From positions 59,623-123,622 of the forward strand of contig CAZRWP010000001.1 in the NCBI GenBank assembly GCA_964603945.1: a stretch of 64,000 nt of DNA, written 5' to 3'. Origin of the DNA: an uncultured Pseudomonadales bacterium (GTDB lineage Bacteria > Patescibacteriota > Microgenomatia > UBA1400 > UBA1396). Shown here piece after piece: positions 9,800 through 42,668 of this stretch. A program made the translations under genes and the position numbers. Position 1 is the first letter of the stretch. Each line of letters starts with the position of its first letter. A model generated the notes under the pieces. That model was not told the origin of the DNA. It saw only the letters and a program-made list of their open reading frames with translations, and searched no databases.

Positions 9800-9842
9800 A
9801 CTAATAGCTGAATTGTTAGCTTCCTGCTGGATGCGAGTTTAA

Positions 9843-14741: not shown

Positions 14742-16184
14742 TTGATTAATGAAAAGCTATCATCTGTCAGTCAAACCTGGGCTGATTTTAGATCAAGACA
14801 ATCGGCGGTTAAGACTGAGCCACTTAAAAATCTTAAACAAGAATTAATTCACCGCTGGCCACAACTGCGTAGGCTGATGGTGGTGGCTGGCGTGGCCGCC
14901 AACTTTGCCCTGCCCGCCATTGATTCACTGGCTTATAACTGCGAAGATCCCTATTGCCAACCGCCAGGCGGAGCAGTAACGGCTCTGCCTGCCCAGGAAA
15001 AAGAGCGTAATCTTGACTTAAACCAGACTCTAAAACCAGCCAGAATATTTTTGCAAAACCTCTTAACTCAATCTCTTGAAAACATAGCTCTTGAAAACAG
15101 CCGGGCAATTCATTTTGATCCTCATGCTTTAGTCTGGGAGATAATGGCCAATCCAGATCTGGTCGCCACTGGCGTGTATGGCACTCCGGTTGGTGGAAGT
15201 TCTTTAGTTGGTTGGGGCAGTGTCAACAATAACTGGCGACGCAAGCATTACAACCCCTACGACAATTATCACGAAATAACCCAGCAACTAGCCAACGAAC
15301 TTCATACCAAACAAACTCAGGCATATTTTGCTGATCTGGTTTTAATTTATGGTCGTTCTGAGAGAGGTTACCTTAATATTGTTAATAAATCAGCTGATTT
15401 TGCTGAATTTGTTCACAATGAAGGTGATATTGTTTTTTTTAATTTGCGTCCGCCTGGCGACTTTTCAGTGGCCGAGCTACGGGAATTAGTCGAAAAAATC
15501 TGGACCGGCCACGCTACTTACCTGGATGGAAGTCAGGTAGTAAGTCAGGAATTTATCAAGGAATCCGGCCCTATTCTATCGCTAGATCTGGAAGAAATGC
15601 TGAGAGGTTATTATCCGGAAGGCGTACCCGCCACTGAACTAAATACCGTTATTGAGACTTACATTGAGATCATGCGTTCTTATGGTTTTGCCAAGCCGGT
15701 TATTTTTCTGTACGAACGTGGCTTGGGTGAGCCAGATATGGTTGATGATGTCAGTCAATTAAATACGGAAAATATTATTATTATTTACTCTGGTTTTGTC
15801 CCAGAAGGTGATCTGGAATATAAAATTCAAGGCACCATCGATTTGATTACTGCCTATGGTAAAACCAGAGGTGGCTGTATGATTTTTGACAGCCAATCCC
15901 TTTCACAAGTTCAGCGGGACGATTTAACGCCAGCTGAGATTCGAGAATATATCAATAACGATGTTTGCGCCTTTGTTCTGCCACAGGGAATTTTACTTAT
16001 TATTGGTGCACCATTTCTTAGATCTAATAGATCGGGCAAATCAGACAAATCTTCCAAATCAACTAAAAGAGTCGCCAAAGCCAGATCAAAAACTAATAAA
16101 AATTCAAAATTGCAGATGCAAAGAAGAATGAATCCTGTGAAGAATTTACCAACGGCTAATCATCGCGCGAGGCGTGCGAGCTAA
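14742..16184 (+). CDS. hypothetical protein with K/R/S-rich C-terminal tail
   Basis: 480-aa ORF; C-terminus 'KSDKSSKSTKRVAKARSKTNKNSK..'; no recognisable catalytic motif. Confidence 0.45.
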   Translation: MINEKLSSVSQTWADFRSRQSAVKTEPLKNLKQELIHRWPQLRRLMVVAGVAANFALPAIDSLAYNCEDPYCQPPGGAVTALPAQEKERNLDLNQTLKPARIFLQNLLTQSLENIALENSRAIHFDPHALVWEIMANPDLVATGVYGTPVGGSSLVGWGSVNNNWRRKHYNPYDNYHEITQQLANELHTKQTQAYFADLVLIYGRSERGYLNIVNKSADFAEFVHNEGDIVFFNLRPPGDFSVAELRELVEKIWTGHATYLDGSQVVSQEFIKESGPILSLDLEEMLRGYYPEGVPATELNTVIETYIEIMRSYGFAKPVIFLYERGLGEPDMVDDVSQLNTENIIIIYSGFVPEGDLEYKIQGTIDLITAYGKTRGGCMIFDSQSLSQVQRDDLTPAEIREYINNDVCAFVLPQGILLIIGAPFLRSNRSGKSDKSSKSTKRVAKARSKTNKNSKLQMQRRMNPVKNLPTANHRARRAS

Positions 16185-16766
16185 AATTTTTATATCCTGC
16201 CAGATATTTTTGTGGCGGGCATATTCGGCATCCATTTTGGCACGCTGAATAAAAGGAATGTCATTTCGTCCCGACACTTGCCAAGGACCGGTAATACCTG
16301 GTTTAACGCTTAAAATATCGCGGATACAAGCTTTAGTTTCAGGGTAGCGAATACTTTGCTCTTTGAGTTCTCTTTCAACATACGCCCTAGGTCCAACCAT
16401 GCTCATGTCCCCTTGCAGGACGTTCAGCAACTGAGGAAACTCGTCAATAGTTAGCGCACGCAACACTTTTCCTAGTCGGGTGATACGAGGGTCATGCTCG
16501 AGCTTCCAGTCACTCTGTTTAAACTTAGCCAGCAGTTTTTTATCCTTTTGATGCAGAAGCTCATCGGCATCTTTGACCATCGACCGGAATTTATAAAGTT
16601 TGATCGATCGGCCACCCAAGCCGACTCGGGTGTGGGTGAAAAAAACCGGCCAACCAGACTCAATCATAATTAGTAGAGGCACAATAATCCAAAACGGCAA
16701 AAAAGCAAAAATTAACAGAGATGAGACTGCTAAATCTAAGATTCGTTTTTGAACTTGATAATCCAT
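16146..16766 (-). CDS. Undecaprenyl-phosphate sugar phosphotransferase (bacterial sugar transferase, WbaP/EpsL-like)
   Basis: N-terminal TM then 'KLYKFRSM..DPRITRLGKVLRALTIDEFPQLLNVLQGDMSMVGPRA' PF02397 signature; first gene of glycan operon in transcription order is GT2 at 27374, this is last. Confidence 0.8.
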   Translation of the reverse strand: MDYQVQKRILDLAVSSLLIFAFLPFWIIVPLLIMIESGWPVFFTHTRVGLGGRSIKLYKFRSMVKDADELLHQKDKKLLAKFKQSDWKLEHDPRITRLGKVLRALTIDEFPQLLNVLQGDMSMVGPRAYVERELKEQSIRYPETKACIRDILSVKPGITGPWQVSGRNDIPFIQRAKMDAEYARHKNIWQDIKILARTPRAMISRW

Positions 16767-16807
16767 AACTTTAATTTCTAAAAGTTTACTCAGCTTTTTA
16801 AGTCTGA

Positions 16808-17917
16808 TTACAAATATTTATCGAGTCCTTCTTCTTGCAGTTTGCCCACTAATTTCTTGACCTCAGCGGCGCGTTCGCGCGGCATAACCATGACCACGTC
16901 ATCGCTATCCACTACCACCAAGTTATCAACTCCGACTAGCGCAACTGCACGATGATTAGTACTGATCAAATTATTATGCGAATCTACCGCCACAACTGGC
17001 TCAGCATCCGCGCCATCACGAACGACTACTGTGCCATTGGTGTCTTTTTCACCCAACTGATAAACCGTGCTCCACAATCCGACATCATCCCAACCGAAAT
17101 CACCTGGGATAAGCATTAAATTGTCCGCTTTTTCCGAGATGGCAAAGTCAATAGAAATTTTTTCAGCGGATTCATATTCAGTATTTAAGACTTGTTGGAA
17201 TTCAGGCGTACCGATTGCCGTTTCAATCTTGGCTAAGTGAACTGTCATGTCAGGCATATATTTCTTAAAAGCGGTTTCGATAGCCTGAACGTGCCAGGTG
17301 TACATATTGGCATTCCAGTAATAATCGCCTTCAGCCAAAAACTGCTCGGCTGTAGCCCGATCTGGTTTTTCCTTGAAGCTCTTCACCGTACAAATCAAGT
17401 CACGACCATCTTCAACTTTGTCTGGATTAACCTGGATATAACCAAAGTTAACATTGGGATCAGTGGGCTTAATTCCAACAGTTAATAAATGGTTGCTCGG
17501 TCCAGCTAATTCCAAAGCCTTAGTAATGACCCGCTGAAATTCCGCTTCATCATTCAAGACATGGTCTGAGGCAATATTGGTGACAATTGCCTCTGGATCG
17601 TAATGCTTGGCAATTAGTGATCCGACGGCCATCGCCATGGCGGTGTCGCGCTTGGTAGGCTCAGCCACAATGTTTTCTGGCAGAACTTGCGGAAGCTGTT
17701 GTCTAACTTCTTCCAGATAATCTTTATTAGTTACAACAATGATTTTTTCCCAGGGAATAACGCGCTCAATTCGGCGCGCCGCCTGCTGAAGCAAAGTGGT
17801 GTTTCCGCCCAACTTAAGAAATTGCTTTGGTTTGTTGTCGCGAGACATTGGCCAAAGGCGCGTACCACTGCCTCCGGCTAAAATAACGGCATAGGCATGA
17901 TCAAGATATGAGCTCAT
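16808..17917 (-). CDS. Mannose-1-phosphate guanylyltransferase-like sugar nucleotidyltransferase
   Basis: 'AVILAGGSGTRLWPMSR..PKQFLKL' NTP-transferase signature; 4-nt overlap with upstream GT4. Confidence 0.75.
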   Translation of the reverse strand: MSSYLDHAYAVILAGGSGTRLWPMSRDNKPKQFLKLGGNTTLLQQAARRIERVIPWEKIIVVTNKDYLEEVRQQLPQVLPENIVAEPTKRDTAMAMAVGSLIAKHYDPEAIVTNIASDHVLNDEAEFQRVITKALELAGPSNHLLTVGIKPTDPNVNFGYIQVNPDKVEDGRDLICTVKSFKEKPDRATAEQFLAEGDYYWNANMYTWHVQAIETAFKKYMPDMTVHLAKIETAIGTPEFQQVLNTEYESAEKISIDFAISEKADNLMLIPGDFGWDDVGLWSTVYQLGEKDTNGTVVVRDGADAEPVVAVDSHNNLISTNHRAVALVGVDNLVVVDSDDVVMVMPRERAAEVKKLVGKLQEEGLDKYL

Positions 17918-19062
17918 GCGATCCCTTCAATCTGCTTTTGATGTTTTTTCCAATATTGATTAACCATATCAAAAAAGGTCTTTTGCCAATTGGCCTCTGC
18001 ATATTGGCTTGCCTGACGCTGGATGTCAAGTTTTGACCACGAGGCAACCATGGCCTTTTTCATAGCCGCCCTCAGCATAGCAATATTTGATTTAGGGAGA
18101 AAGAGGGCATCCTGATCTGGTCTTAGTAGCTCCGCCGCCCCGCTGTGGACGTTTATTATCACTGGACAGCCTTGAGATACTGCCTCCATGGCTGTAATAC
18201 CAAAATCTTCTTCCTGAGGAAAAACAGCGGCTTTAGCGTGCTGAAGATACCAGGCAACTTCAGATTCGGCAATCTGACCGACAAACTTAATATATTGCTG
18301 ATCCGGATCTAATCTCTGCGCAAATTTCTGCCAACATTTTGTTTTGGATCCCCTACCAGCCACAACCAAAAATTGCCGATTGGCTATCGCCGCCTGAATT
18401 GTTAAGTCAATCTTTTTGTAGGCAACGTGGCGACCCCAGGTAAAAAAGAAGTCGGCGGGCGGAATATACTTTGGTTTAGTAGGTTTTGCTAGTTTGGGAA
18501 TTGGTGGATAAATTGGCTCCTGAGCAGGGCGTCCATAATATTGGCGACATCGTTTCGCCACTAATTTTGAAATTGGCACAATTGTGTCTGGATTTTTAGC
18601 TGTATTTTGATCAATTTTTCTTAACCAATTCATGACTTGCTTGGCAAAAACGCGGATGATTGGAGGTAGTTCACGTAGATATTCAGTCTGATGAGACCAG
18701 AGATAACGAGTAGGAGTTAATAAATAGCACAAATGCAACTGACTGGGACTTGTTTGTACAGCCTTGGCAAACTCCGAAGTAACTGAAATTACTACGTCAT
18801 ACTCTGCCAAGTTAAATGACCTAAATGCCCAGGGCATGAGCCAACCAATTAATTGATGGCGACTCCGCAACCAAGGTATTGATTGCAAAAGGCTAGGACG
18901 TACATCCCAATTGTCTGCCCACCTAGCCCTTGATGGATCATAAACTGAGGTATATAGCGGCGCCTTAGGAAATATTTTATGCAAAGCCAAAAGAACACGC
19001 TCGGCTCCGCCCCACGAATTTACACGATCGTAGACAATGGCCACCCGGAGTGGTGATTTCAT
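17914..19062 (-). CDS. Glycosyltransferase family 4
   Basis: GT-B fold, C-terminal 'E..FGITAMEAVSQGCPVI' GT4 motif. Confidence 0.7.
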   Translation of the reverse strand: MKSPLRVAIVYDRVNSWGGAERVLLALHKIFPKAPLYTSVYDPSRARWADNWDVRPSLLQSIPWLRSRHQLIGWLMPWAFRSFNLAEYDVVISVTSEFAKAVQTSPSQLHLCYLLTPTRYLWSHQTEYLRELPPIIRVFAKQVMNWLRKIDQNTAKNPDTIVPISKLVAKRCRQYYGRPAQEPIYPPIPKLAKPTKPKYIPPADFFFTWGRHVAYKKIDLTIQAAIANRQFLVVAGRGSKTKCWQKFAQRLDPDQQYIKFVGQIAESEVAWYLQHAKAAVFPQEEDFGITAMEAVSQGCPVIINVHSGAAELLRPDQDALFLPKSNIAMLRAAMKKAMVASWSKLDIQRQASQYAEANWQKTFFDMVNQYWKKHQKQIEGIA

Positions 19063-20219: not shown

Positions 20220-20228
20220 AAGTTTTAT

Positions 20229-20741
20229 TTACTCAGCTTTCTTGGTTGAGCGGCGTGTCGTGGTTTTCTTAGCCGCTGTACGACGCTTAACAGCACCGCT
20301 TTTGCGGGTAGAAGCGCGCTTGGTTGTATTAGCAGATGATTTGCTAGCCGACTTGGCAACTGACTTCTCTTCTTTAGAGGCTTCGGCTAAAGCTTCTGCT
20401 AAAGCATTGCTGTCTTCCAGACCATCATCGTTAAAAGCAAATTGCATTAATTCCAGATCTTGCTTTAACTGACGGATGCGGCGAACTCTCAGGAAATTTC
20501 CTAGTAAAGCGTATAGCACAAAGAAGGTGGCTACACCGTAGGCAACAACCGGAATGTTGTTTAAGAGTGCTGACTGGTTAGGATTAAAGTCCGGATTCTG
20601 CATCAAAAACTGGAATAATAATTGGGGCAAAAGCAAGGCAGTGATAATCGCAAAAAAGCTGATTAAAAAGGCCTCGACCGCGGCTACCAACCGATTATTC
20701 TGTTCGCTCTGGATTTCGAACTGTAGATTATTTACTTGCAT
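20229..20741 (-). CDS. small membrane protein with basic K/R/T-rich C-terminal tail
   Basis: Two predicted TM helices then 'SKSSANTTKRASTRKSGAVKRRTAAKKTTTRRSTKK'; embedded in glycan operon. Confidence 0.4.
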   Translation of the reverse strand: MQVNNLQFEIQSEQNNRLVAAVEAFLISFFAIITALLLPQLLFQFLMQNPDFNPNQSALLNNIPVVAYGVATFFVLYALLGNFLRVRRIRQLKQDLELMQFAFNDDGLEDSNALAEALAEASKEEKSVAKSASKSSANTTKRASTRKSGAVKRRTAAKKTTTRRSTKKAE

Positions 20742-21642: not shown

Positions 21643-21664
21643 TATATTTTTCAATTTGTTTGTA

Positions 21665-22891
21665 TTATTTCTTAACGTTTTGATCACGGTTTTTGGCAGT
21701 AGTTTTTTGATAAACAGTTAGTAAGTCTTGGGCTATAATTTCCCAGCTGAAACGGCGGCTAACAAATTCTTTACCACTTTTTCCTAAACGCTTTTGACGT
21801 TCTTCATCGCCAAGCAGTTCGATTGCCACTTTCGCCATTTCCTCGGCGGAATCGCCTTGCAGAAAATGCTTATTTGGCTCAGCCTGGATGCCTTCCAGAG
21901 CAATTGAGGTACCAACCACCGGTGTCTCTGATGCCATCGCTTCCAGAACCTTATAGCGTGTTCCTTTGCCGCTAAAAACCGGCGCCAACAAAATATTAGC
22001 CTTGGCATATTCTTCACGAATATCTGGGACGCGTCCGGTTACAGTAATTTGTTTATCTTGCTTTTCATAATCGATAATTTTTTTAGTCGGTGAGGGGCCG
22101 ACTATTCTTAAATTAATATTAGGCACAGCTTGCTTAATAAGTGGCCAAATTTTCTCAACTAAAAATTCAACTGCCTCAACATTTGGCAACCAATGAAAGG
22201 TGCCTACAAACAGCAAGCTCGGCTGGCTTGACAGCTTTTTTTTGACTTGGCTGAAAAAATTAATGTCGACTCCATTACTGACCACATCAATATTCTTAAT
22301 ACTTGGCTCAACTTGCCGAATAAAATCTCGATCATCTTCCGAAACCGTTACCAGGCGATCACATCGACGCCAATAATGTTTTTCCCAATAACGAATCTTG
22401 GCAATGTCCAAGTTTAAAAGTGGCCGCAGAAGTGGCCATCGCCGCCGGATTTTAGCCGCAAAATCCTCATAACCTAAGTACTCAATTGTCTGTTCAACCA
22501 AAATTGTTGGCACAGCCGTTTTAGGAATGTTTGGCATCATATAAAACGTTTCCACATGAATTAGGTCGTGCTTAATTTCTTCTAATTCTTTGGCAATCTC
22601 TTGCTTAAGTGACATCACTAGATTTCTCGTTACCACAAACGGGAAAGGTGTGAAGCCAGCCAACAAAATATTACGGGGATGCCATGGCTTGGCCGTGCGC
22701 TTAAACAGCTTTATCTTATGGCAGTACGGCTCAAGTTCTTTAATGTATTGAAGCTCTTCTTTCTTTTTAATGAGAGCAAACAGAGTAACCTCGTGTTCCT
22801 TGGAAATTTGTTTAAGCAGATTGTAGGTTCTGACTTGGCCGCCACTTAGTAGAGGATATGGCAGATAAGGAGTCAGCATGAGAATTCGCAT
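21665..22891 (-). CDS. Glycosyltransferase family 4
   Basis: 'MRILMLTPYLPYPLLSGGQVR' N-terminus, GT-B C-terminal nucleotide-sugar motif. Confidence 0.75.
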   Translation of the reverse strand: MRILMLTPYLPYPLLSGGQVRTYNLLKQISKEHEVTLFALIKKKEELQYIKELEPYCHKIKLFKRTAKPWHPRNILLAGFTPFPFVVTRNLVMSLKQEIAKELEEIKHDLIHVETFYMMPNIPKTAVPTILVEQTIEYLGYEDFAAKIRRRWPLLRPLLNLDIAKIRYWEKHYWRRCDRLVTVSEDDRDFIRQVEPSIKNIDVVSNGVDINFFSQVKKKLSSQPSLLFVGTFHWLPNVEAVEFLVEKIWPLIKQAVPNINLRIVGPSPTKKIIDYEKQDKQITVTGRVPDIREEYAKANILLAPVFSGKGTRYKVLEAMASETPVVGTSIALEGIQAEPNKHFLQGDSAEEMAKVAIELLGDEERQKRLGKSGKEFVSRRFSWEIIAQDLLTVYQKTTAKNRDQNVKK

Positions 22892-24444
22892 TACTTGGCA
22901 CTCCTTAGATCAAAAATGATGTAATCATCCGTTTCCTCAACCACTGGAAATTGCTGGCGCAGTTCACCAACTTCATCATCCTTACTAGTAGAAACGTAAA
23001 AATCCGCGCCTTGCTCAATTTTTTCATCAATATCAAATCCAAGTGGCCAACCGCGCCGGTTGGTCTGGAAAAGAAAGGCGGTATCACCCATATAAGGCGC
23101 AATTACTAGAGCGTCTGGCGAAGTTAAGCGCTCAACTGCTGTACCGGCTCTGACAATAGCCCAATTATTAATGTTGTATAAATCTTTAATAAAATACCAG
23201 GCAAAAAGATTCGAGAAAATCCAAATTACTATTAGTCCAGTGGCCATGCCAACTGTTTGTAAGCGCGTTGGCGCCCATCTAATCAAACCAACCGCTCCCA
23301 ATGCCCAAAGCCAAGCCATTACTGGAATCAAGATTATCTGATAGTAATCATGCTGAACATTACCGCTGGCGAACACCACTAAATACAACATCATGCCGGC
23401 GACTAAACCCAAAATGGCACCCTGATTCTTAAACCAACTCTGCAAATAACTCAAAATTTCACCGAGCCTGGGTGGTAAATTTTTTGTAACTTTATTTTTA
23501 ATTAATGAAACTGAGGTCGGCAAGGTCATGGCTAAACCAATTATCGTCAACGGCGCACCCCAGTAACCAAACATCATCCGTCCAATCCGGTCAGCAAACA
23601 ACCAACGCCACCAGGCAGGTTTCAAACGAATACCATTGCCGTTCAACAACCAATCAGAAACGGGAATGCCAGTTGGAAAATTTAAGATCCAACTTCGCCA
23701 CCAAATCACTGGTAAGACGGCCAGAACCAAGCTGACCGCCAGCTTTAAAAGATTTATAAAATTAAGTTTCCCTTTTAATAACAACCTCTCAGGGAACTGC
23801 CATATGAGACCGATAAAAGTGGGAGCAAAAAACACGGCGGTCGGCTTGACCAATAGCGCCAGAGCGCCAGTCAAAGCAGTTAGAATCAACCAGCCATCGC
23901 GGCCTTGGTATTTTTTTAGCCAGGCATACCAACTAACCAGTGCCAAGCCAATAAACATTAATACAAAAGGTTCAGGCAGAATTACCCGGCCATAATAAAT
24001 TGCGTAAGGCATAAAAGTCCAAACTGCTGTGGCTACTAAAGCAGTGGCGGGATTATTTAACCGCCAAATTAACCAGCCAAAAGTAATCATGGCGATAATG
24101 GTTGCCATTACACTCGCTATACGGCTAGTAACCACCAAATCCAGGCTGGGCTGGGCTTGTAAAATAACTGCTAGCAGACCATTAATGACGGGAAACTCGA
24201 CCATTCGCCAGCCTTCAGGATTGAATTCTCCGGACTGAATGTTGGAAATATCGTGATAACGTGGTCGCAGTAAATCCACGCCGTTTTTAACATACTCACG
24301 CGTGACAGAGGCCGTATCAGCTTGTCGGAAAGAATGCCAATCAGCTAGCGGTGTATCAATTTTATAAAGGCGGAGACCAAAGGCAATTATTAATAAAGCT
24401 ATCATAATGCCAGATAGCCAACTTCTCTTCAGCCAGGTCATCAC
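22891..24444 (-). CDS. Polyprenyl-phosphate-dependent GT-C glycosyltransferase (PMT_2 / ArnT-like, GT39/83-like)
   Basis: ~12 TM helices, N-terminal loop motif 'HSFRQADTASVTREY' characteristic of PMT_2 family. Confidence 0.65.
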   Translation of the reverse strand: MMTWLKRSWLSGIMIALLIIAFGLRLYKIDTPLADWHSFRQADTASVTREYVKNGVDLLRPRYHDISNIQSGEFNPEGWRMVEFPVINGLLAVILQAQPSLDLVVTSRIASVMATIIAMITFGWLIWRLNNPATALVATAVWTFMPYAIYYGRVILPEPFVLMFIGLALVSWYAWLKKYQGRDGWLILTALTGALALLVKPTAVFFAPTFIGLIWQFPERLLLKGKLNFINLLKLAVSLVLAVLPVIWWRSWILNFPTGIPVSDWLLNGNGIRLKPAWWRWLFADRIGRMMFGYWGAPLTIIGLAMTLPTSVSLIKNKVTKNLPPRLGEILSYLQSWFKNQGAILGLVAGMMLYLVVFASGNVQHDYYQIILIPVMAWLWALGAVGLIRWAPTRLQTVGMATGLIVIWIFSNLFAWYFIKDLYNINNWAIVRAGTAVERLTSPDALVIAPYMGDTAFLFQTNRRGWPLGFDIDEKIEQGADFYVSTSKDDEVGELRQQFPVVEETDDYIIFDLRSAK

Positions 24445-24448
24445 GCCC

Positions 24449-26308
24449 CTATCTTTTTTGTGTTTTTCTTTTGTTTTTAGTGCTCTTTTGCCGACGCTTA
24501 GCTGAAGAAAGATATTTCGTAGTCGCCGTTTTTTCTTTAGCTGATTCCTCCACCGCTAAAAGAAGTGAACGCAACCGCTGAGTGTCCTTTTCCTTAGCCT
24601 GACGGGCAAAAGCAAACTTGGGAGCAATCAGCCCCTCATTGACAAAGACTGCCAGGAAAATACCTTGCAAAATCCAGAAGGTATAAGCCACTTTGGAAGA
24701 AACAAATACGTCGATATATATCGCATTCACCAAAAGACCAATTATGCCGGCAAAGTTAGCAATCGCCAAAGCGGTTAACCAAATATCCTTGCTTTTTTGG
24801 TACGCCTGCCAGCTGTACCACAGAGCCAACCCAATCGCCCCGTAATAGAAGAAGAAGCCCAGAGCACCATTCTCGCCTAAAGTCCTCAAATAATTATTGT
24901 CCGTACTTTCAGCTTCGGTGAATTGCTCAACGGTTGATTTAGTTAGTGTGGCATATCCCGAGCCAATCAGCGGATTACGCATAAAGCCGGCAAAGGCCTG
25001 CGGCCAAAGCGTCTCTAAGCGGATACAAACCGACAAACTATGCTCTAAAGCGCAATCAGAAAACACTCGATCTTGGACTAATTTGTCGCCCACTTGCTTT
25101 AGATTTCCAGCCATGGTCGCGGCTGGATCATTAAGCTCAAATTGTTGAGCTGGCACGTCCGTGTAGACATCTTTGGGGCGTTCAGAACTCGGCTGAGTAT
25201 CAGTTACTGTCATACCTTGTTCATTCAGCTCTCTTTCTAGATCATCAGTTGATTTGCCACCTTCTGGCGGCTGACCCAGCTGAATTCCCAGATAAGCTAA
25301 AGGATTTTCACGCATACCATTGGTAAAACGAAAGATCGAAGTAATGATCGGGTAACGATTCTCATCAATAATTTGCGAATATCGTGATGACAAATCTCCC
25401 ACAAACAGCATCATGGCTCCACTGATAGCCAAAACAGTCAGTCCGCGTGAAATTCCCCACCACCAGCCGCGTCGCCACATATAAAGCACAACAACCAAAC
25501 CAGCCGCTAGTAAATAACCAATAAATGAAGTCCTGGAGGCAGACATAACCATCAACCAAAGTCCGCCAAACCAGGTTAGACCAACCAAAATACTCAACAA
25601 CCACTTCTGCCATTTCTTAACAAAATCAGCGTCTCGTAGTCCAAAAAATACAGCCAATGTTAAAGGCAGAATAATAACCAAATAGGCGCCAAGATCATAA
25701 TGTCCAGCAAAAGTAGATTGAACTCGGGCATGCTCACCCAAATACAAACGAACTCCTTTGCTAAATTCACGATTCATCGTCGAAAACACTGGCCAAAAGT
25801 GATATTTCTGACCGTAACCATACACAATTACTCCCAACAGAGCCACCAACACTGTGCCGACCAGGAATAAGGCCTGTCGGCGGTTTTTCACGGCGTTATA
25901 GCCAATAAAAAAGAGTGACAAATACTGAATATGTCGAGCCCAATGCAACATTGATTTACCTATATGCAGAAGTTCTTCCGGAATAGTTTTAGTGATGTAA
26001 ACCCCACCAATATTAGAAAGCAATCCAATTGCCAGGTAAGCCAAAATAAACCAAGTAAGAGGCGTTTTCCAGGTTACTTTCCGTCTTAATAGAGAAATCA
26101 ACCACCAGCCGGCCACCAGCGCAATAAAGACATCTTCCAGGCGCAGGCGGACAATATAACCAGGAATTATGTCAGCAAAAGGAATCTTAGGATAAAGAGG
26201 AATGAAGATAATTAGGAAGGCGGTTGCTAAAAGCAAAAAGTATTCATCAAACCAATGCCAAAGCTTCCTGATAAGCACGCTGAAGTCCATATCGTCGCAG
26301 TATACCAA
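24449..26308 (-). CDS. O-antigen ligase/polymerase-like (Wzy_C-like) polytopic membrane protein with basic C-terminal tail
   Basis: Many TM helices plus large extracytoplasmic loop; C-terminus 'KRRQKSTKNKRKTQKR'; position inside glycan operon. Confidence 0.55.
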   Translation of the reverse strand: MVYCDDMDFSVLIRKLWHWFDEYFLLLATAFLIIFIPLYPKIPFADIIPGYIVRLRLEDVFIALVAGWWLISLLRRKVTWKTPLTWFILAYLAIGLLSNIGGVYITKTIPEELLHIGKSMLHWARHIQYLSLFFIGYNAVKNRRQALFLVGTVLVALLGVIVYGYGQKYHFWPVFSTMNREFSKGVRLYLGEHARVQSTFAGHYDLGAYLVIILPLTLAVFFGLRDADFVKKWQKWLLSILVGLTWFGGLWLMVMSASRTSFIGYLLAAGLVVVLYMWRRGWWWGISRGLTVLAISGAMMLFVGDLSSRYSQIIDENRYPIITSIFRFTNGMRENPLAYLGIQLGQPPEGGKSTDDLERELNEQGMTVTDTQPSSERPKDVYTDVPAQQFELNDPAATMAGNLKQVGDKLVQDRVFSDCALEHSLSVCIRLETLWPQAFAGFMRNPLIGSGYATLTKSTVEQFTEAESTDNNYLRTLGENGALGFFFYYGAIGLALWYSWQAYQKSKDIWLTALAIANFAGIIGLLVNAIYIDVFVSSKVAYTFWILQGIFLAVFVNEGLIAPKFAFARQAKEKDTQRLRSLLLAVEESAKEKTATTKYLSSAKRRQKSTKNKRKTQKR

Positions 26309-27374
26309 AAACTAGGATTCTTAAACCAATACCAAATCGCAATATTTGGCGGAGCATCCAGAGGTCGAATCCAGAAGAATGCTTATACCATAAGTAAAGG
26401 AGACCATTTATCTCACCAATAATGGCATTTTTGTGATCACTGCTGGCCGAGCCTAAATGAATTACCTGGCCAGCATCCGCCAGCACAACGTCCCAGTGGC
26501 GGCGATTGGCGCGCCAACAAAGTTCTACATCTTCGCCATACATAAAGATATGCGGATCAAAACCACCAATTTCTTCCAGGCACGGACGAGAAATCATCAT
26601 GCAGGTGCCGCCTACCCAGCCAACTTTAGCCAATTTTTTTTGTTTTAATGACTTCATCTGTGATCCGTGATGCTGATAAGAAGTTAAGACTCTAGACAAA
26701 AACGGCACATCGTCTAAAAAAGTGATCCAGCGAAATAAATTAGACAAACTGGGCAAGGCACCACCCTGTACCTGAATAGTCTTATCTGAGTTAAAAACAT
26801 AAGCTGACGCAATTCCCACATTATCAATCACCGCCTGTGTCCGACTTAAAACGGAACTAGACTTAACAAAGTTAGTTGATGAAAACGTCTTGGTCAAAGC
26901 AAAAGCTGTTCGTGGTTTTACAAAAGCATCTGAATTCACATAGAAGTAATAGTCACAATCAAGCATGGCGGTGGCAAGGTTGTTGGCACGACCAAAGCCA
27001 ATGTTCTTACGCAGTTCCACCATATGCAGTGTGTGCTCACCAACCGATGTGCTTCGAATATTGGAAATTTGCTCAATGTCTTCCGTGATGTTACCGAAAA
27101 GTTGTTCTATATGATCATCCTTTTTCTTATCTTCAGCAACCTTTAGCAAATCGTTATTTTTTCGCAGACGATAGCGCCTAGCCAAAGATACAGGACTTCT
27201 ATCCGTAGAAGCATTATCAATTACGACCACATCTAACAAGACACCTTTGGAAGCTAATAAAGCCTCAACGGATTTACGTGTCAATTCAGAAGTATTGTAA
27301 GAAATCACCACCGCACAAACCCGGGCTTTGAGTCTTTCCCTTTTTTTCCAGGTAGTATTGGTTACACTAGACAT
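26247..27374 (-). CDS. Glycosyltransferase family 2
   Basis: 'VVISYNTSELTRKSVEAL..VVVIDNASTD' GT-A motifs; start codon abuts start of divergent DUF167 gene (CATATG). Confidence 0.7.
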   Translation of the reverse strand: MSSVTNTTWKKRERLKARVCAVVISYNTSELTRKSVEALLASKGVLLDVVVIDNASTDRSPVSLARRYRLRKNNDLLKVAEDKKKDDHIEQLFGNITEDIEQISNIRSTSVGEHTLHMVELRKNIGFGRANNLATAMLDCDYYFYVNSDAFVKPRTAFALTKTFSSTNFVKSSSVLSRTQAVIDNVGIASAYVFNSDKTIQVQGGALPSLSNLFRWITFLDDVPFLSRVLTSYQHHGSQMKSLKQKKLAKVGWVGGTCMMISRPCLEEIGGFDPHIFMYGEDVELCWRANRRHWDVVLADAGQVIHLGSASSDHKNAIIGEINGLLYLWYKHSSGFDLWMLRQILRFGIGLRILVFGILRRYGLQRAYQEALALV

Positions 27375-27611
27375 ATGCGAGTATTATCCGTAAAAGTAAT
27401 TCCAAAGGCGAGCCGCAATGAAGTAACTCAGCTTTCGAAGGATAGCTTTAAGGTATATGTTACCTCGGTCGCGGAAAAAGGGAAAGCCAATAAGTCCATG
27501 CTTAAACTACTAGCTAAGCATTTGGGCTTACCGCCCTCCCACCTAATGATCTCCCGTGGAGATCGTTCCAACGATAAAACCGTGCTAGTATTGGAATCAG
27601 CTATCATATGA
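27375..27611 (+). CDS. DUF167 (YggU-like) family protein
   Basis: 'VKVIPKASRNEV..VYVTSVAEKGKANKSMLKLLAKHLGL' matches DUF167/UPF0235 pattern. Confidence 0.65.
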   Translation: MRVLSVKVIPKASRNEVTQLSKDSFKVYVTSVAEKGKANKSMLKLLAKHLGLPPSHLMISRGDRSNDKTVLVLESAII

Positions 27612-28615
27612 AAGTCTTAGTTACAGGCGGAGCCGGCTTTATTGGCTCACACTTTGTTCATTACTGGTTAGCAAATCATCCTGAGGATACCGTCGTTAAT
27701 TTTGATCTTTTAACTTACGCCGGCAATCTGGATAATTTGCAGGACATTGCTGATTCGCCCCAATATCAGTTTATTCAAGGCGATATTCGCGACGTTTCTG
27801 CTGTCGACCAGGTAATGACTGGTGTGGACATAGTGGTTCATTTTGCCGCCGAGACTCACGTGGACCGCTCAATATTAGAACCATCAGCTTTTGTGACCAC
27901 TAATGTGGTCGGCACCCAGGTTTTGCTGGACTCTGCCTTGCGACATCGGGTAAAACGATTTCACCATATCTCAACAGATGAGGTTTTCGGCAGTCTTGAA
28001 CTTGGTTCAGCTGAAAAATTCTCCGAAACCACTCCGTATGATCCACGCAGTCCTTACTCTGCTTCTAAAGCTGGCTCTGATCACTTGGTCCGTGCTTATG
28101 GCGAAACCTTTAATCTGCCAATTACTATCTCTAATTGCTCAAATAACTATGGTCCAAACATGTTCCCGGAAAAATACTTTCCGCTGGCCATCACCAATTT
28201 AATTGAGGGCAAAAACATTCCAATCTACGGTGATGGCTTAAATGTGCGCGACTGGCTATTTGTCACCGATCACTGCCGAGCAATTGAGGTAATTTTGCAA
28301 AATGGCCGCCTGGGAGAAACCTACTGCGTGGGAGGCCTAACCAAGGATGTATCTAATCATGAGATTGCCAAGATGATTCTAAACTTGATGAACTTGCCCG
28401 AAGACCGAATTGATTTTATAAAAGACCGGGCTGGCCATGACCGCCGTTATGCCATCGACTGGACCAAGATAAATCAAGAGCTTGGCTGGGCGCCATCAGT
28501 AACTTTGGAAGAGGGTTTGAGACAGACAATTGAGTGGTATCAGAACAATCAGAACTGGTGGCAGGCACTCAAACAAGCCAACGCCGATTATTTTAATAAG
28601 CAATATCAAGCCTAA
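27608..28615 (+). CDS. rmlB: dTDP-glucose 4,6-dehydratase
   Basis: 'MKVLVTGGAGFIGSHF' Rossmann, catalytic 'YSASKAGSDHLVRAY' YxxxK, 4-nt overlap with upstream gene. Confidence 0.85.
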   Translation: MKVLVTGGAGFIGSHFVHYWLANHPEDTVVNFDLLTYAGNLDNLQDIADSPQYQFIQGDIRDVSAVDQVMTGVDIVVHFAAETHVDRSILEPSAFVTTNVVGTQVLLDSALRHRVKRFHHISTDEVFGSLELGSAEKFSETTPYDPRSPYSASKAGSDHLVRAYGETFNLPITISNCSNNYGPNMFPEKYFPLAITNLIEGKNIPIYGDGLNVRDWLFVTDHCRAIEVILQNGRLGETYCVGGLTKDVSNHEIAKMILNLMNLPEDRIDFIKDRAGHDRRYAIDWTKINQELGWAPSVTLEEGLRQTIEWYQNNQNWWQALKQANADYFNKQYQA

Positions 28616-28634
28616 ACAGAGTGAGGAAATCAAG

Positions 28635-29252
28635 ATGAGTCAAACAATTAGCTACGAACCTCAACCATATGATGAATTTAGTCCAGGTATATACAAAACT
28701 CCTCTGGAGGAAGTTTATTTTATACCTTTTACTAAACACCCCGACCAACGGGGTTTTTACACAGAGCTAACTCGTCTGCCAGAATTAGACGCCGTTTTAA
28801 AGGAACCTTTTCAGCCAAGGCAGATAAATTTAAGTAATTCAAAAACTAAGGTGATCCGAGGTTTTCACGCTGAAAACTGGCAAAAATTAGTAACAATCAT
28901 AACTGGCACTGCTTTCTGTGCCTTGGCGGATTTTAGGCCACAATCACCACAATTTGGTCAAGTTATGACTGCCTCAATGGGAGAGAATGGATTAAACGGA
29001 TCTCTTTTTCTGCCCGCGGGTATCGGCAATTCTTTTTGTGTAACTCAGGGAGATTTAAATTATTTGTACGCCGTTGATCAGCTTTACCGCGATCGAGATT
29101 CAAGCGGTGATGTTGCTATTTCTTTGTTTGATTCAGATCTAAATGTCCAGTGGCCATTTGAGCAATCTGAATTAATAATCTCTGATCGTGATCGGGCATC
29201 CATATCACTGCGAGAGCGTTTTCCAGAAAAGTTCGGAGGTCAAGATGAATGA
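28635..29252 (+). CDS. rmlC: dTDP-4-dehydrorhamnose 3,5-epimerase (RmlC-like cupin)
   Basis: Start ATG at 28635 preceded by GAGGAAA SD; 'IRGFHAENWQKLVTIITG' cupin core; ORF-track start further upstream overlaps rmlB. Confidence 0.7.
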   Translation: MSQTISYEPQPYDEFSPGIYKTPLEEVYFIPFTKHPDQRGFYTELTRLPELDAVLKEPFQPRQINLSNSKTKVIRGFHAENWQKLVTIITGTAFCALADFRPQSPQFGQVMTASMGENGLNGSLFLPAGIGNSFCVTQGDLNYLYAVDQLYRDRDSSGDVAISLFDSDLNVQWPFEQSELIISDRDRASISLRERFPEKFGGQDE

Positions 29253-30159
29253 TGATATAGCTAGCAATTCAGGCAGTGATTTAACTAGTAGTTCAAATAA
29301 TATCTCAACTAAAGAATCAATATTGGGCACTGGCTTGTCTGGCTTAGTTGGTTCTGGACTGGTGAGCATTTTGAGTGACCGTTATCAGTTCCATAATCTT
29401 GATCTGACCAATGGAGTCAATATTTTAGAACCAAAGACACTGGAAAAAGCTTACGCTGAGCATCCATCACCAGTCTTAATTCATTTAGCCGCTTTTACAG
29501 ATGTTAACTCAGCCCAGGAACAAATGGGTCAAAAAGACGGGTCGGCTTATCAAGTAAACGTTACTGGCACCCGCAACGTCGCTGAGCTGTGCGCCAAGCA
29601 CAATATGCACCTTATTCACCTATCAACTGGTTATGTCTTTGATGGTGAAAAGCGTTCAGCTTATTCCGAAGATGATGCGGTAAATCCAGTTGACTGGTAC
29701 AGCGTGACCAAAACAGAAGCTGAAAAAGTTGTTCTGGACATTACACCAAACGCTACCATTTTCCGAATCAATTTCCCCTACCGGCAGGACGAATTTCCCA
29801 AAAAAGATATTTGGCATAAACTAGCTGAAGGTTTACAAGCTGGTAAAACCGGACCTTTTTTTGAAGATCATTTCTTTACTCTTACTCCGGTGGAATGGTT
29901 TGCTCAAGTTGTTGATTGGGCAATTACCACCAAGCCAGCCGGAATCTTTCACGCCACCACCGATCAAGTTTATACCGATCTATCACTGGCCCAATCAGTT
30001 GCCCAGGAGCTTGGCTTGTCTGTCAAGAATTTGAGTGGCGGCTCAGTCCATGAGTACAATAAGCAGGCGAACCGGCCATATCAGCCATCACTCATTTTAA
30101 GCAATGAGAAACTAAAACAAGCTATGGGCGATCGCTATCCAGATGGTAAAACAAGCTAA
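29245..30159 (+). CDS. rmlD: dTDP-4-dehydrorhamnose reductase with ~30-aa S/N-rich N-terminal extension
   Basis: Start at MNDDIAS (GGAGGT SD), 'IHLSTGYVFDG..Y.E.D..NPVDWYSVTK' RmlD motifs; 8-nt overlap with rmlC. Confidence 0.7.
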   Translation: MNDDIASNSGSDLTSSSNNISTKESILGTGLSGLVGSGLVSILSDRYQFHNLDLTNGVNILEPKTLEKAYAEHPSPVLIHLAAFTDVNSAQEQMGQKDGSAYQVNVTGTRNVAELCAKHNMHLIHLSTGYVFDGEKRSAYSEDDAVNPVDWYSVTKTEAEKVVLDITPNATIFRINFPYRQDEFPKKDIWHKLAEGLQAGKTGPFFEDHFFTLTPVEWFAQVVDWAITTKPAGIFHATTDQVYTDLSLAQSVAQELGLSVKNLSGGSVHEYNKQANRPYQPSLILSNEKLKQAMGDRYPDGKTS

Positions 30160-31177
30160 ATTCAGACCATTTTTCCGCTGGCGATTGTTATTTGCAACCT
30201 TATTTTTAATGTTAATTTGTGGTTATGCTTATACCAATGAGCTGGGATTACCTTTACCATTACTGCCAACCAACTTAATTACACCCAATACGCCAAAGAC
30301 AATTAATCAACCTTCAATATCTACCGAGGACATAGTTAGTCAAATTCAGAACATTAGAACTGAAAATAATCTAGATCCTCTAAATGAAAACACCACTCTG
30401 GAAAAAACTGCCCGGTTGGTAAGTTTGGAAATTGAGGACGCTCAGGATATTAATACCGAGATAAATTATGAGAGAATTCTGAATGCAGTCAGTCTAACCA
30501 AACCTCCAGAAGTTGAGGGTTTTGTTATTTTTCTTGCCGGCGTTGGTAAGCCAGATGATATTTTGGCCGACAATGAGTCTAGGCTTTTTTCTAAAGCAAA
30601 TTATACTCAGATAGGTGTCGCAACCAGGTCAGCTACCATAGCTGAGGAAGATGGCTTGATCGTGGTAATTTTGAGTTCACCGGAATTTTATCAGCCACCA
30701 AATAATCCTCAGGTAAACACTCAAGTAATTACCGATGATTCCAATGATATTCAAGGCGCGGTAACTGGCTCAGTGGCTCAAACTTCCGCTGGCCAATTGC
30801 CCAAAGAGTTCAGCTATACCGGTCAGGATCTTTGGCAGGCAGTGCAAAATTACCGCCGCGCCCATCGCCTACCCGAATTTCAACAATCCAATGAGCTTTG
30901 CACCGTGGCCAGCATCCGCCTGAATGAACAAATAGAGCTTGGCCGACTGGACAATCATGAAGGATTCTCCGCCCGAGCAGACGAATTTTTTGATAAAAAT
31001 CCTGACTGGCGCAATCTAAATGAGAATTTAGCGTCCGGTTTTGACACCGCCGTACAAGTGGTGGAATGGGGCTGGGATCAGAGTTTGGGACATCAGGCTT
31101 TAATTAAAAGCTTGGAATCTCCTAAAGCCTGCGCGGCGGCTAATTATGGCTTTGCTGTGTTAATCACCGGTAAATAA
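30143..31177 (+). CDS. Membrane-anchored CAP/SCP (PR-1-like) domain protein
   Basis: N-terminal TM; C-terminal 'YRRAHRLPEF..HEGF..NLASGF..VVEWGWDQSLGHQALI' CAP domain signature. Confidence 0.55.
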   Translation: MVKQAKFRPFFRWRLLFATLFLMLICGYAYTNELGLPLPLLPTNLITPNTPKTINQPSISTEDIVSQIQNIRTENNLDPLNENTTLEKTARLVSLEIEDAQDINTEINYERILNAVSLTKPPEVEGFVIFLAGVGKPDDILADNESRLFSKANYTQIGVATRSATIAEEDGLIVVILSSPEFYQPPNNPQVNTQVITDDSNDIQGAVTGSVAQTSAGQLPKEFSYTGQDLWQAVQNYRRAHRLPEFQQSNELCTVASIRLNEQIELGRLDNHEGFSARADEFFDKNPDWRNLNENLASGFDTAVQVVEWGWDQSLGHQALIKSLESPKACAAANYGFAVLITGK

Positions 31178-31183
31178 TAATGC

Positions 31184-31223
31184 AACCTAAAATGCCCACG
31201 GCTCCGCCAAAGCGGAGCCGTGG
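31184..31223 (-). terminator. Rho-independent terminator for 31270..31524 (hairpin shared by convergent genes)
   Basis: Perfect 12-bp stem CCACGGCTCCGC-CAAA-GCGGAGCCGTGG; on minus strand followed by GCATTTTAG U-tract; no U-tract on plus side. Confidence 0.5.
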
Positions 31224-31269
31224 ACGGACGTTGAGAGGGCCTGCCCAACCACCTCTCGTCAAGCTGTCA

Positions 31270-38617: not shown

Positions 38618-38624
38618 GGACAGC

Positions 38625-42398: not shown

Positions 42399-42668
42399 TT
42401 AGATGCTTTCTCCAGCTATCAGCTCTTGTTTTTGCTGTCTGGATAATTTTTTGATTTCGGCTTCTAAATGCTGTGCCACGGAACGATCAGGTGCCTCCAA
42501 CTGATATTTTAGTTTTACCGGCAGACGCACTTTGGTATATTTTGCTCCGCTACCCTGATTGTGGGCGAGTATTCTCTGCTCTAAATCTTTGGCACAACCG
42601 GTATATAAGGTGCCGTCAGCGCATTCAACTATGTAAACCCACCAATTCTCTGCCTGTGCTGACTTCAT
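42399..42668 (-). CDS. GIY-YIG nuclease family protein (YhbQ/UPF0213-like)
   Basis: 'WWVYIVECADGTLYTGCAKDLEQRILAHNQG' GIY-YIG motifs; start taken at MKSAQ (ORF-track start would overlap greA start). Confidence 0.7.
   Translation of the reverse strand: MKSAQAENWWVYIVECADGTLYTGCAKDLEQRILAHNQGSGAKYTKVRLPVKLKYQLEAPDRSVAQHLEAEIKKLSRQQKQELIAGESI

Follow-up and report, generated by a model that had tools for sequence, protein, structure and literature searches.

Gene content of the locus

The 64-kb window analyzed here (the whole stretch of 64,000 nucleotides) contains a conserved assembly cluster for an envelope glycan, a cell-surface sugar polymer, of a Microgenomates-type Patescibacteria (CPR) bacterium with a tiny genome (Table 1). 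Ten minus-strand genes run from 27374 down to 16146 and five plus-strand genes from 27375 to 31177, and ORF, Pfam, and NCBIfam analyses bear out the leftward glycosyltransferase (GT) operon and the rightward DUF167-rml-CAP operon of a preliminary description of this DNA. The full gene order was found in the Microgenomates-type relatives L007 to L009 and the junction-proximal genes in L170 to L172. The relatives are Woesebacteria-, Curtissbacteria-, and Pacebacteria-type Patescibacteria, which fits the earlier suggestion of a probably monoderm envelope. A CAP-gene counterpart of 325 to 351 aa lies downstream of rmlD in every relative whose fetched DNA extends that far.

Table 1. Genes and sequence elements of the locus (positions in the window)
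Feature	Positions	Strand	Basis or remark
Small monotopic polyprenyl-phosphate phosphoglycosyl transferase, 206 aa	16146..16766	-	Pfam Bac_transf 200.6 bits
Mannose-1-phosphate guanylyltransferase, ManC-like, 369 aa	16808..17917	-	Pfam NTP_transferase and ManC_GMP_beta-helix
GT4 glycosyltransferase, 382 aa	17914..19062	-	Glycos_transf_1 67.7 bits
GT4 glycosyltransferase, 386 aa	19059..20219	-	Glycos_transf_1 96 bits
170-aa protein, two predicted TM segments, basic low-complexity C-terminal tail	20229..20741	-	
GT2 glycosyltransferase, 304 aa	20728..21642	-	Glycos_transf_2 74.7 bits
GT4 glycosyltransferase, 408 aa	21665..22891	-	Glyco_trans_1_4 90.2 bits
GT-C fold lipid-carrier-dependent glycosyltransferase, GT39/ArnT-like, 516 aa	22891..24441	-	
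WaaL-fold (Wzy_C superfamily) membrane glycan ligase/polymerase, 613 aa	24449..26290	-	
GT2 glycosyltransferase, 375 aa, first gene of GT operon	26247..27374	-	Pfam GT2 families
P1, inferred -10 hexamer TACACT	27363..27368	+	6 nt before DUF167 ATG; antisense of GT2 codons 3-4
CATATG, two divergent starts abutting, 0 nt between	27372..27377	.	Sequence
DUF167 (YggU-family) protein, 78 aa	27375..27611	+	Pfam 73.8 bits, TIGR00251 79.1 bits
Proximal -10-like hexamer GATAAT, candidate	27383..27388	-	8 nt before GT2 ATG
Distal candidate TTCCCT-N16-TAACAT, inside DUF167 codons 28-37	27457..27484	-	Near-frozen synonymous sites
P2, TGCTAGTAT, extended -10-like element, candidate internal promoter	27583..27591	+	16 nt before rmlB ATG
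RmlB, dTDP-glucose 4,6-dehydratase	27608..28615	+	TIGR01181 462.6 bits, cut-off 365.1
RmlC-like dTDP-4-dehydrorhamnose 3,5-epimerase	28635..29252	+	Pfam dTDP_sugar_isom 103.8 bits
RmlD-like dTDP-4-dehydrorhamnose reductase	29245..30159	+	RmlD_sub_bind 158.6 bits
CAP/YkwD-like protein, N-terminal hydrophobic anchor, 344 aa, last gene of rml operon	30143..31177	+	CAP 27.5 bits, cut-off 21.1
Hairpin, 14-bp stem, likely bidirectional terminator	31194..31225	.	Terminator scan; between CAP gene and convergent gene

The phosphoglycosyl transferase is the initiating enzyme; its match to the WbaP/EPS sugar transferase models of NCBIfam is confined to their C-terminal catalytic part, and it has one predicted hydrophobic segment. 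The ManC-like protein lacks a PMI domain, and its match to TIGR01479 (GMP_PMI, E = 3.5e-89) covers the guanylyltransferase part only (model positions 3 to 349 of 467). No Pfam or NCBIfam family matched the 170-aa protein, which has counterparts of 160 to 164 aa at the equivalent position in L007, L008, and L009. The internal GT2 enzyme, without a predicted TM segment, has 304 aa according to gene callers, with the start as on L001 to L006, and 319 aa from the first in-frame start. The largest GT4 enzyme reached 220.6 bits against TIGR03087, under the cut-off. Two homologues of the first-gene GT2 have been named WbbL-type rhamnosyltransferases by JGI, and this protein carries an 18-residue N-terminal extension ahead of beta-1, kept in relatives and missing from distant homologues.

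The earlier designation of the GT-C protein as PMT_2 GT-C stands for the fold, whereas protein O-mannosylation specifically is not supported: its Pfam PMT and PMT_2 scores (28.0 and 29.1 bits) barely exceed the cut-offs, and ArnT, ALG12, and STT3 resemble it as closely as PMT does. Since it is equally close to several GT-C families, such as ArnT, PMT, and ALG12, its donor and acceptor are not assignable. RmlC and RmlD scored below the NCBIfam equivalog cut-offs (79.5 bits against 155.75 for TIGR01221 and 152.5 against 224 for TIGR01214), and therefore the deoxysugar may not be L-rhamnose.

Proposed glycan assembly

The enzyme families and folds are shown by the analysis, whereas the sequence of reactions, the sugars used, and the kind of acceptor are inferred. 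The small phosphoglycosyl transferase would place a sugar phosphate onto polyprenyl phosphate, and three GT4 and two GT2 enzymes would extend the chain at the cytoplasmic face, using GDP-mannose (ManC) and a dTDP-6-deoxyhexose (RmlB and the RmlC/D-like enzymes) as donors. The intermediate would cross the membrane via a flippase encoded by none of the window's recognized genes. Outside, the WaaL-fold enzyme would pass the finished glycan to an envelope acceptor, and the GT-C enzyme would add a sugar from a lipid-linked donor. When the remaining ORFs of at least 100 aa in the 64-kb window were scanned against Pfam, no RmlA-type transferase, MOP/Wzx flippase, Wzm/Wzt, or Wzz was detected, in agreement with the reported absence of rmlA, Wzx, and a chain-length regulator. 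Neither an LCP-type ligase nor a polyprenyl-phosphate sugar synthase was recognized at the locus.

Among known systems, the WaaL-fold protein comes closest to the O-antigen ligase WaaL (PDB 7TPG/7TPJ) and PglL/WsaB-type O-oligosaccharyltransferases of the Wzy_C superfamily. It differs from WaaL in sequence (14% identity; 21.8 bits against Pfam Wzy_C, under the 31.7 cut-off) and in size (613 versus 403 aa, with an additional loop of 200 residues); a CPR cell is not expected to contain lipid A-core. Rather than a ligase or oligosaccharyltransferase, this protein might be a polymerase of the Wzy type that joins the repeat units of a wall or capsular polysaccharide, a possibility to be kept in mind although we do not consider it probable. 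The superfamily includes polymerases, one source calls a homologue "Secreted polysaccharide polymerase," and the next-best folds are SEDS polymerases. However, Wzy polymerases diverge with each repeat-unit structure, whereas the WaaL-fold protein retains about 45% identity between very distant CPR lineages and has more than 1,800 homologues; moreover, Wzx and a chain-length regulator were not found nearby.

Rhamnose-rich cell-wall polysaccharide clusters of Gram-positive cocci and Geobacillus S-layer glycan (slg) clusters have in common with the window rml genes, GT2 and GT4 enzymes, an initiating phosphoglycosyl transferase, and an extracytoplasmic GT-C or Wzy_C enzyme. Unlike the 64-kb window, they also have rmlA together with an ABC transporter or Wzx flippase. 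These clusters (reviewed in PMC9574508 and PMC4931226) are among the known loci most like this one.

Abutting start codons at the operon junction

The zero intergenic distance noted previously was confirmed in the sequence, and both start codons are sound; on six or more metagenome contigs, independent gene callers set both starts at these abutting positions. Mis-annotation of one start, which would leave room for an ordinary divergent promoter region, is scarcely credible. Elsewhere in the window, some ORF-derived starts lie too far upstream, as for the GIY-YIG gene at 42704. However, no ATG, GTG, or TTG occurs in the first-gene GT2 after M1 until V22, and relatives share its N-terminal W9 and K10. 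The GTG proposed at about 27317 does not exist; the first GTG codons met in frame are those of V22 and V23 (27311-27306) within beta-1, so that no downstream start restores a normal promoter region. Likewise, the next possible DUF167 start is M42, yet the family profile aligns from residue 3. The same start calls were seen again in five diverged lineages.

The spacer is 0 nt in five lineages (the window, L007, L090, L008, and L171), down to 53% GT2 identity, and 29 to 61 nt in L175, L010, L173, L170, and L172. DUF167 is missing in L009, L174, and L176.

Promoter candidates

Each of the 12 close lineages, which are related and do not represent independent events, carries TAnnnT upstream of the first rml-operon gene, at a distance of 6 nt (once 7 nt) from the ATG. 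These lineages show eight distinct hexamers with constant T1, A2, and T6 and variable middle bases; in window shuffles, the chance of TAnnnT was about 3% per register. In the five zero-spacer lineages, the hexamer is the antisense of GT2 codons 3 and 4, codon 3 begins with A, and codon 4 is GTA, ATA, or TTA, so that NTA is kept while the residue varies (V/I/L). These codons are rare (relative use of 0.16, 0.12, and 0.24, respectively), and none of the seven spacer-bearing lineages has NTA as codon 4. The 12 include lineages with the hexamer in non-coding spacer and diverging flanks.

Bacterial leaderless genes are marked by TANNNT some 12 nt ahead of the start (PMC3160421), and by this criterion we infer that TACACT is the promoter of a leaderless DUF167-rml mRNA. 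Window-wide, TANNNT at N6/N7 precedes 7 of the 36 genes that come first in an operon, compared with 2.15 +/- 1.42 after shuffling (P = 0.005), and only 1 of 19 internal genes, whereas SD-like motifs precede 10 of 19 internal genes versus 6 of 36 operon-first genes. In the window, no SD-like motif was seen ahead of the GT2 or DUF167 start. P1 has no recognizable -35 element, and a sigma-70 consensus scan of 26800-28000 found nothing.

The GT-operon promoter is less certain than that of the rml operon, and its candidates lie inside the DUF167 gene. The proximal GATAAT is shared by the window and L008, with CATAAT at N7 in L172 and at N9 in L010; it is not present in L007, L090, and L171. The distal candidate reads TTGCCT-N16-TAACAT in most relatives, and synonymous sites of its block are nearly invariant (V29 GTT, 10/10; T30 ACC, 9/10; A38 GCC, 9/10). 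The modal-codon fraction is about 0.87 in DUF167 codons 28-40 and about 0.79 in codons 63-73, compared with about 0.45 in the rest of DUF167 and about 0.55 in the GT2 gene. No conserved antisense ORF crosses the distal block. This candidate consists mostly of preferred codons, and codon bias may explain part of its conservation. P2 contains AAAACCGTGnTAGTATTGGA (TGnTAGTAT), invariant in seven ingroup lineages, and TAGTAT still precedes rmlB in the DUF167-less lineages.

Proposed working of the junction

The touching starts are most likely workable through leaderless transcription of at least one operon, from a promoter embedded in the first codons of the opposing gene. With moderate confidence, we favor as the best explanation of the whole a glycan-assembly cluster with a leaderless rml operon and promoters embedded in opposing genes. 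The DUF167-rml mRNA would start at the A of the ATG (27375), driven by P1 as a -10-only element doubling as the antisense of GT2 codons, a double role that the N-terminal extension of GT2 would tolerate. P2, in the DUF167 3' end, probably drives rmlBCD-CAP separately. The GT operon would start within DUF167, from GATAAT or from the TTGCCT-N16-TAACAT-like site about 80 nt upstream. Loss of the spacer, fitting a compact genome, would be possible because neither promoter would need a leader region. As judged from sequence, the glycan cluster itself appears ordinary, and the promoter geometry unusual and conserved.

Alternatively, neither operon might be leaderless, and ordinary promoters deep in the opposing genes might produce long, antisense-overlapping 5' leaders in an excludon-like, face-to-face arrangement. 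The frozen block in DUF167 codons 28-40, promoter-like on the GT strand in most lineages, and the three lineages without a conserved -10 beside the GT2 start point in this direction. Nevertheless, we regard long leaders as unlikely: for the rml operon, TAnnnT at exactly N6/N7 in all close lineages, including some with the hexamer in spacers with diverged flanks, is hard to account for otherwise; neither start in the window has an SD-like motif ahead of it; and no conserved promoter-like block was found in the 5' part of the GT2 gene. Still less probable, indeed very much so, is that DUF167 no longer works as a gene and survives as a relic in decay, its DNA now only providing both operons with a shared promoter and leader region. 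It occupies exactly the position of an intergenic spacer, contains two blocks conserved at the nucleotide level, and is lacking from three lineages. However, its ORF is intact in 10 lineages and gap-free over the first ~72 codons, down to 47% GT2 identity; its Pfam and TIGR00251 scores both exceed the cut-offs; its stop overlaps the rmlB start (ATGA); and synonymous sites of conserved residues outside the two blocks vary freely, a mark of selection on the protein.

Comparison with known promoter arrangements

Leaderless mRNA genes of Actinobacteria and Deinococcus have a TANNNT -10 box about 12 nt before the start codon (PMC3160421, PMC4007540, PMC3898074). The rml operon resembles them in having TAnnnT 6 to 7 nt before ATG, no SD, and no clear -35, and in the enrichment of this pattern at operon-first genes. 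Unlike in those genes, the inferred -10 here is embedded in a divergent gene's coding sequence, whose codon choice would maintain it. No published leaderless survey for Patescibacteria was found in the literature searched. Warman et al. (bioRxiv 10.1101/2020.01.31.928960) described bidirectional promoters with overlapping -10 elements and divergent transcription start sites (TSSs) 7 to 25 bp, mostly 18 bp, apart. The junction would be similar in its closely spaced divergent initiation from one short DNA stretch; however, the inferred TSSs of the window would be only about 1 to 2 bp apart, and each -10 box would lie beyond the opposite TSS, inside the other transcript. In L175 and L176, the opposite-strand -10 boxes appear to overlap, as in the model of Warman et al.

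Results

The ORF map agrees with the preliminary description of the locus as ten minus-strand genes (the GT operon) that meet five plus-strand genes (the rml operon). The minus-strand set encodes a small Bac_transf phosphoglycosyl transferase, a ManC-type guanylyltransferase, two GT4 enzymes, a 170-aa membrane protein, a GT2, a further GT4, a PMT/PMT_2 protein, a protein with a weak Wzy_C match, and another GT2; the plus-strand set encodes DUF167, RmlB, an RmlC-like protein, an RmlD-like protein, and a CAP-domain protein. The claimed zero-nucleotide junction can be read directly in the sequence as CATATG, and in at least six independent metagenome contigs from this organism gene callers place the abutting starts alike. 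The earlier suggestion that GT2 truly starts at a downstream GTG is rejected, as this codon would fall within beta-1: the ATG is the sole start codon 5' of the first beta-strand (VCAVVISYN), and the next candidates, V22 and V23, both lie inside that strand. The N-terminal motif of GT2 is common to relatives down to 53% identity, W9 and K10 are invariant in the twelve closest sequences, and residues 1 to 18, absent from distant homologues, thus form an extension that is specific to the clade and lies beyond the catalytic fold. For DUF167, alignment to the Pfam and TIGR00251 profiles begins at residue 3, and the next possible start is M42. Since both start codons are sound, the zero spacer is genuine. 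A hairpin with a 14-bp stem closes the rml operon, and Rfam matched only three tRNAs in the whole window, so the junction has neither a riboswitch nor another known RNA. At its other end, GT2 shares 44 nt with the beginning of the WaaL-fold gene, and synonymous sites in its codons 351 to 375 are almost frozen (modal fraction 0.77 to 0.92), as expected for dual coding.

Coordinates of features in the window and, where stated, in relatives' loci
Feature	Position	Strand	Remark
GT operon	27374 to 16146	-	ten genes
rml operon	27375-31177	+	five genes
Start-codon junction	27372-27377		CATATG
P1	27363-27368	+	putative rml-operon promoter: TACACT, 6 nt 5' of DUF167 ATG
Second -10 candidate at junction	27383-27388
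Inferred transcription start pair	27375/27376
P2	27583-27591	+	3' part of DUF167
WaaL-fold gene	24449-26290	-	613 aa
GT-C gene	22891-24441	-	516 aa
GT2/WaaL-fold gene overlap	26247-26290
Hairpin	31194-31225
Second PMT_2-type GT-C gene	5596-7035	-	479 aa
DUF4012 gene	12302-14575	-	757 aa
ORF with LPQG	14742-16184	+	480 aa
HlyD-type and AcrB-type genes	37145-41978	+
GIY-YIG gene, as listed	42399-42704	-
GIY-YIG gene, alternative ATG	42668	-
greA	42698-43201	+
IMPDH/GMP-reductase-like gene	48390-49762	+	three ORFs
DUF167 gene of L175	1234-1471 (L175)	-
Inverted repeat of L009	~9833-9940 (L009)

The GT2 family occurs in Woesebacteria-, Curtissbacteria-, Chisholmbacteria-, and Pacebacteria-type Patescibacteria. 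Twelve further lineages, collected by exact-protein look-ups and one metagenome scan, were compared (L numbers denote relatives' loci); among the matches listed, scans with generic GT2 motifs yielded at least one useful locus from genomes and at least three from metagenomes. The complete gene order is present in L007 to L009 and the junction-proximal genes in L170 to L172. A very short shared control region is the rule at this locus, with zero as its extreme. In a neighbor-joining tree the spacer-bearing L172, L010, and L175 fall outside, implying either two gains of the zero spacer or a single gain followed by re-expansion in L170 and L173.

Divergent starts in the window and its relatives
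Locus	GT2 identity to window (%)	Spacer (nt)	Hexamer at P1 position	Remark
Window		0	TACACT	reference
L007	73	0	TACACT
L090	67	0	TATAGT
L008	61	0	TAAACT
L171	53	0	TATACT
L175	50	29	TATAAT
L010	47	45	TACAAT
L173	61	48	TACAAT
L170	60	51	TACAAT
L172	51	61	TACAAT
L176	43	35		no DUF167, rmlB faces GT2
L174	60	119	TATTGT	no DUF167, rmlB faces GT2
L009	59	204	TATCGT	no DUF167, rmlB faces GT2

Two of these loci show features of their own. The spacer of L009 contains a perfect 20-bp inverted repeat (AGGGTCGATCCCTCTTCACG ... CGTGAAGAGGGATCGACCCT), a possible operator or inserted element. L175 carries an intact DUF167 gene (MRILTVTVVPDSARED...) that the source's gene caller missed; it has TATAAT-N6-ATG and is separated by 29 nt from a GTG-initiated GT2 gene, which is preceded by GAAGGGGA.

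Bacterial leaderless genes have a published signature, TANNNT with its first T about 12 nt 5' of the start codon (PMC3160421). A TAnnnT hexamer lies 6 nt (once 7 nt) 5' of the first rml-operon ATG in all 12 closest lineages, in eight distinct versions that keep T1, A2, and T6 constant. Within the spacers, no other stretch is conserved. Where the spacer is zero, the hexamer lies antisense to GT2 codons 3 (AGT or ACT) and 4 (GTA, ATA, or TTA), and NTA is kept at codon 4 though the residue alternates between V, I, and L. All three are rare codons in this setting, making up 0.16, 0.12, and 0.24 of their codon families, and none of the seven spacer-bearing lineages has NTA at this position. DUF167 has TACACT at -12 to -7 and lacks a Shine-Dalgarno (SD) sequence, the pattern by which Zheng et al. 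recognize leaderless genes. In the more distant L176, an SD (AAGGAG) follows TAGTAT, which makes rmlB leadered there. A sigma-70 consensus scan of 26800 to 28000 returned no site; promoters at the junction, if real, would be of a -10-only kind.

Further candidate elements lie inside DUF167. Across ten DUF167 genes, conserved residues are mostly free at synonymous sites (modal-codon fraction about 0.45; the GT2 gene baseline is about 0.55), with two nearly frozen blocks, codons 28 to 40 and 63 to 73. The latter holds AAAACCGTGnTAGTATTGGA, invariant in seven ingroup lineages, which reads as an extended -10 (TGnTAGTAT) 13 to 31 nt 5' of the rmlB ATG; TAGTAT is kept 5' of rmlB in lineages without DUF167. 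This element is likely a second promoter, P2, for rmlBCD-CAP. Codons 28 to 40, read on the GT strand, contain TTGCCT-N16-TAACAT (with TTCCCT in the window), a candidate GT-operon promoter; a transcript from it would carry a 5' leader, about 76 nt long, that runs antisense to the DUF167 start. A conserved antisense ORF, considered to explain why these synonymous sites are frozen, is interrupted by stops in most lineages and was rejected. Closer to the GT2 gene, GATAAT is found 8 nt 5' of the ATG in the window and L008, matching the leaderless pattern in part only, and CATAAT at N7 in L172 and N9 in L010. Nothing comparable lies near the GT2 ATG in L007, L090, and L171, which leaves the GT-operon promoter with candidates rather than a settled assignment. 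In 10 of 13 lineages the gene directly 5' of rmlB, where rmlA is often found, is DUF167 (YggU family); in the window, the DUF167 stop and the rmlB start overlap.

Throughout the window, TANNNT at N6/N7 precedes 7 of 36 operon-first genes (shuffles, 2.15 +/- 1.42; P = 0.005) and 1 of 19 internal genes. SD-like motifs precede 10 of 19 internal and 6 of 36 first genes, and no gene has both. This modest but consistent evidence makes leaderless initiation plausible in this organism. The listed GIY-YIG and greA genes overlap head to head by 7 nt; the true GIY-YIG start is likely the ATG at 42668 (MKSAQAENWW...), giving TACACT-N6-ATG, a 29-nt divergent spacer, and a second compact leaderless-type pair. 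The second PMT_2-type GT-C gene also has a leaderless-type start (TAAACT-N7-GTG). The DUF4012 gene adjoining the glycan locus has TACAAT just 2 nt 5' of its listed TTG, so that its true start may differ.

RmlB is a TIGR01181 equivalog (462.6 bits, cut-off 365.1). The RmlC-like and RmlD-like proteins pass Pfam (103.8 and 158.6 bits) and score under the TIGR01221 (79.5 against 155.75) and TIGR01214 (152.5 against 224) cut-offs. The rml-operon product is predicted to be a dTDP-6-deoxyhexose, probably but not certainly L-rhamnose. The sole NTP_transferase in the 64-kb window is ManC-type (TIGR01479); this 369-aa enzyme is a predicted GDP-mannose pyrophosphorylase without the isomerase domain, and the 206-aa initiating enzyme, with one membrane segment, is predicted to correspond to the catalytic core of WbaP-type transferases. 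A Pfam search of all other ORFs of at least 100 aa bore out that the window holds no RmlA and no Wzx/MOP flippase or chain-length regulator (no Polysacc_synt, MurJ, or Wzz match), and found no ABC exporter there. No polyprenyl-phosphate sugar synthase, including the polyprenyl-phosphate-mannose type, was recognized in the window. A GtrB/GtrA- or GacI/GacJ-like pair feeding the GT-C enzyme, formed by GT2-304 (the 304-aa GT2) and the 170-aa protein, is unsupported: GT2-304 has no transmembrane segment and only general GT2 matches, and the 170-aa protein has two predicted transmembrane segments and no family.

The 613-aa protein has a WaaL-type polytopic membrane fold. Its PF04932 (Wzy_C) score of 21.8 bits does not reach the cut-off of 31.7, and many of its homologues have a precomputed PF04932 match. 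An alignment examined for the O-antigen ligase/Wzy_C assignment has invariant R and H columns, candidates for the catalytic Arg/His residues. For the 516-aa protein, the proposed GT-C fold and PMT-type sequence domain stand; it may be a protein O-mannosyltransferase, but it is about as close to other GT-C families (ALG12, ArnT, Pmt4, and STT3B score within 2 Z units of one another). PDB sequence searches with three membrane/GT proteins gave no matches, making fold searches necessary. Homologues of the WaaL-fold and GT-C proteins number more than 1800 each and share about 45% identity across Patescibacteria. This conservation suggests a conserved acceptor and favors a ligase over a repeat-unit polymerase. 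Our literature searches found nothing relevant on O-antigen ligases in CPR.

Among other genes, the IMPDH/GMP-reductase-like gene is broken into three overlapping ORFs that differ in frame, with Pfam IMPDH matches to model positions 90-170 and 168-330, and is a pseudogene or frameshifted. The 480-aa ORF belongs to no Pfam or NCBIfam family and shares 39 nt at its 3' end with the convergent Bac_transf gene. Its product has a transmembrane segment at the N-terminus and, at the C-terminus, LPQG followed by a hydrophobic stretch and a basic tail, which resembles a sortase-type sorting signal.

Discussion

The glycan cluster itself is ordinary for the phylum. What appears new is the conserved zero spacer together with codon-level upkeep of a -10 box, both built on known mechanisms; the promoter arrangement would join leaderless mRNAs with closely spaced divergent promoters. 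We infer every promoter here from sequence and comparison, and the lineages compared are related. In symmetrical bidirectional promoters, start sites lie 7 to 25 bp apart, mostly 18, and flank shared -10 boxes (Warman et al., bioRxiv 10.1101/2020.01.31.928960). The junction falls outside this class as defined: its inferred start sites are 1 to 2 bp apart, and the -10 candidates lie outside that pair, each inside the opposite transcript and coding sequence.

CATATG might be a fully interleaved pair of leaderless promoters, a reading that we consider unlikely. On this reading, RNA polymerase footprints would coincide, so that only one operon could initiate at a time, constituting a protein-free switch between sugar-nucleotide supply and glycan assembly. 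The first codons of both genes would be selected as promoter DNA, the geometry would be distinct from the 7- to 25-bp symmetrical class, and leaderless initiation would suggest itself as a general route to intergenic loss in CPR.

For P1, the junction offers a clean natural case in which a putative promoter element and the N-terminal codons of the divergent gene are the same DNA, the presumed -10 bases T, A, and T being fixed while the encoded residue drifts between V, I, and L. It may provide a concrete mechanism by which ultra-small CPR genomes delete intergenic DNA and keep regulation, and gene callers or promoter predictors built on intergenic promoters and SD sites would misread such genomes. 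Within the literature that could be searched, we found no report of leaderless transcription in CPR.

In gene content the locus resembles Gram-positive clusters for rhamnose wall polysaccharides and S-layer glycans; however, those carry rmlA and an exporter, both missing from the 64-kb window. Together, the WaaL-fold and GT-C enzymes resemble core envelope machinery of Patescibacteria, whose surface chemistry is essentially unexplored. Six kilobases from the locus, a HlyD-type adaptor gene adjoins that of a 1117-aa AcrB-type RND transporter, a pair also adjacent in the relatives' loci L001, L004, and L007; such a transporter is notable for a presumed single-membrane CPR cell.
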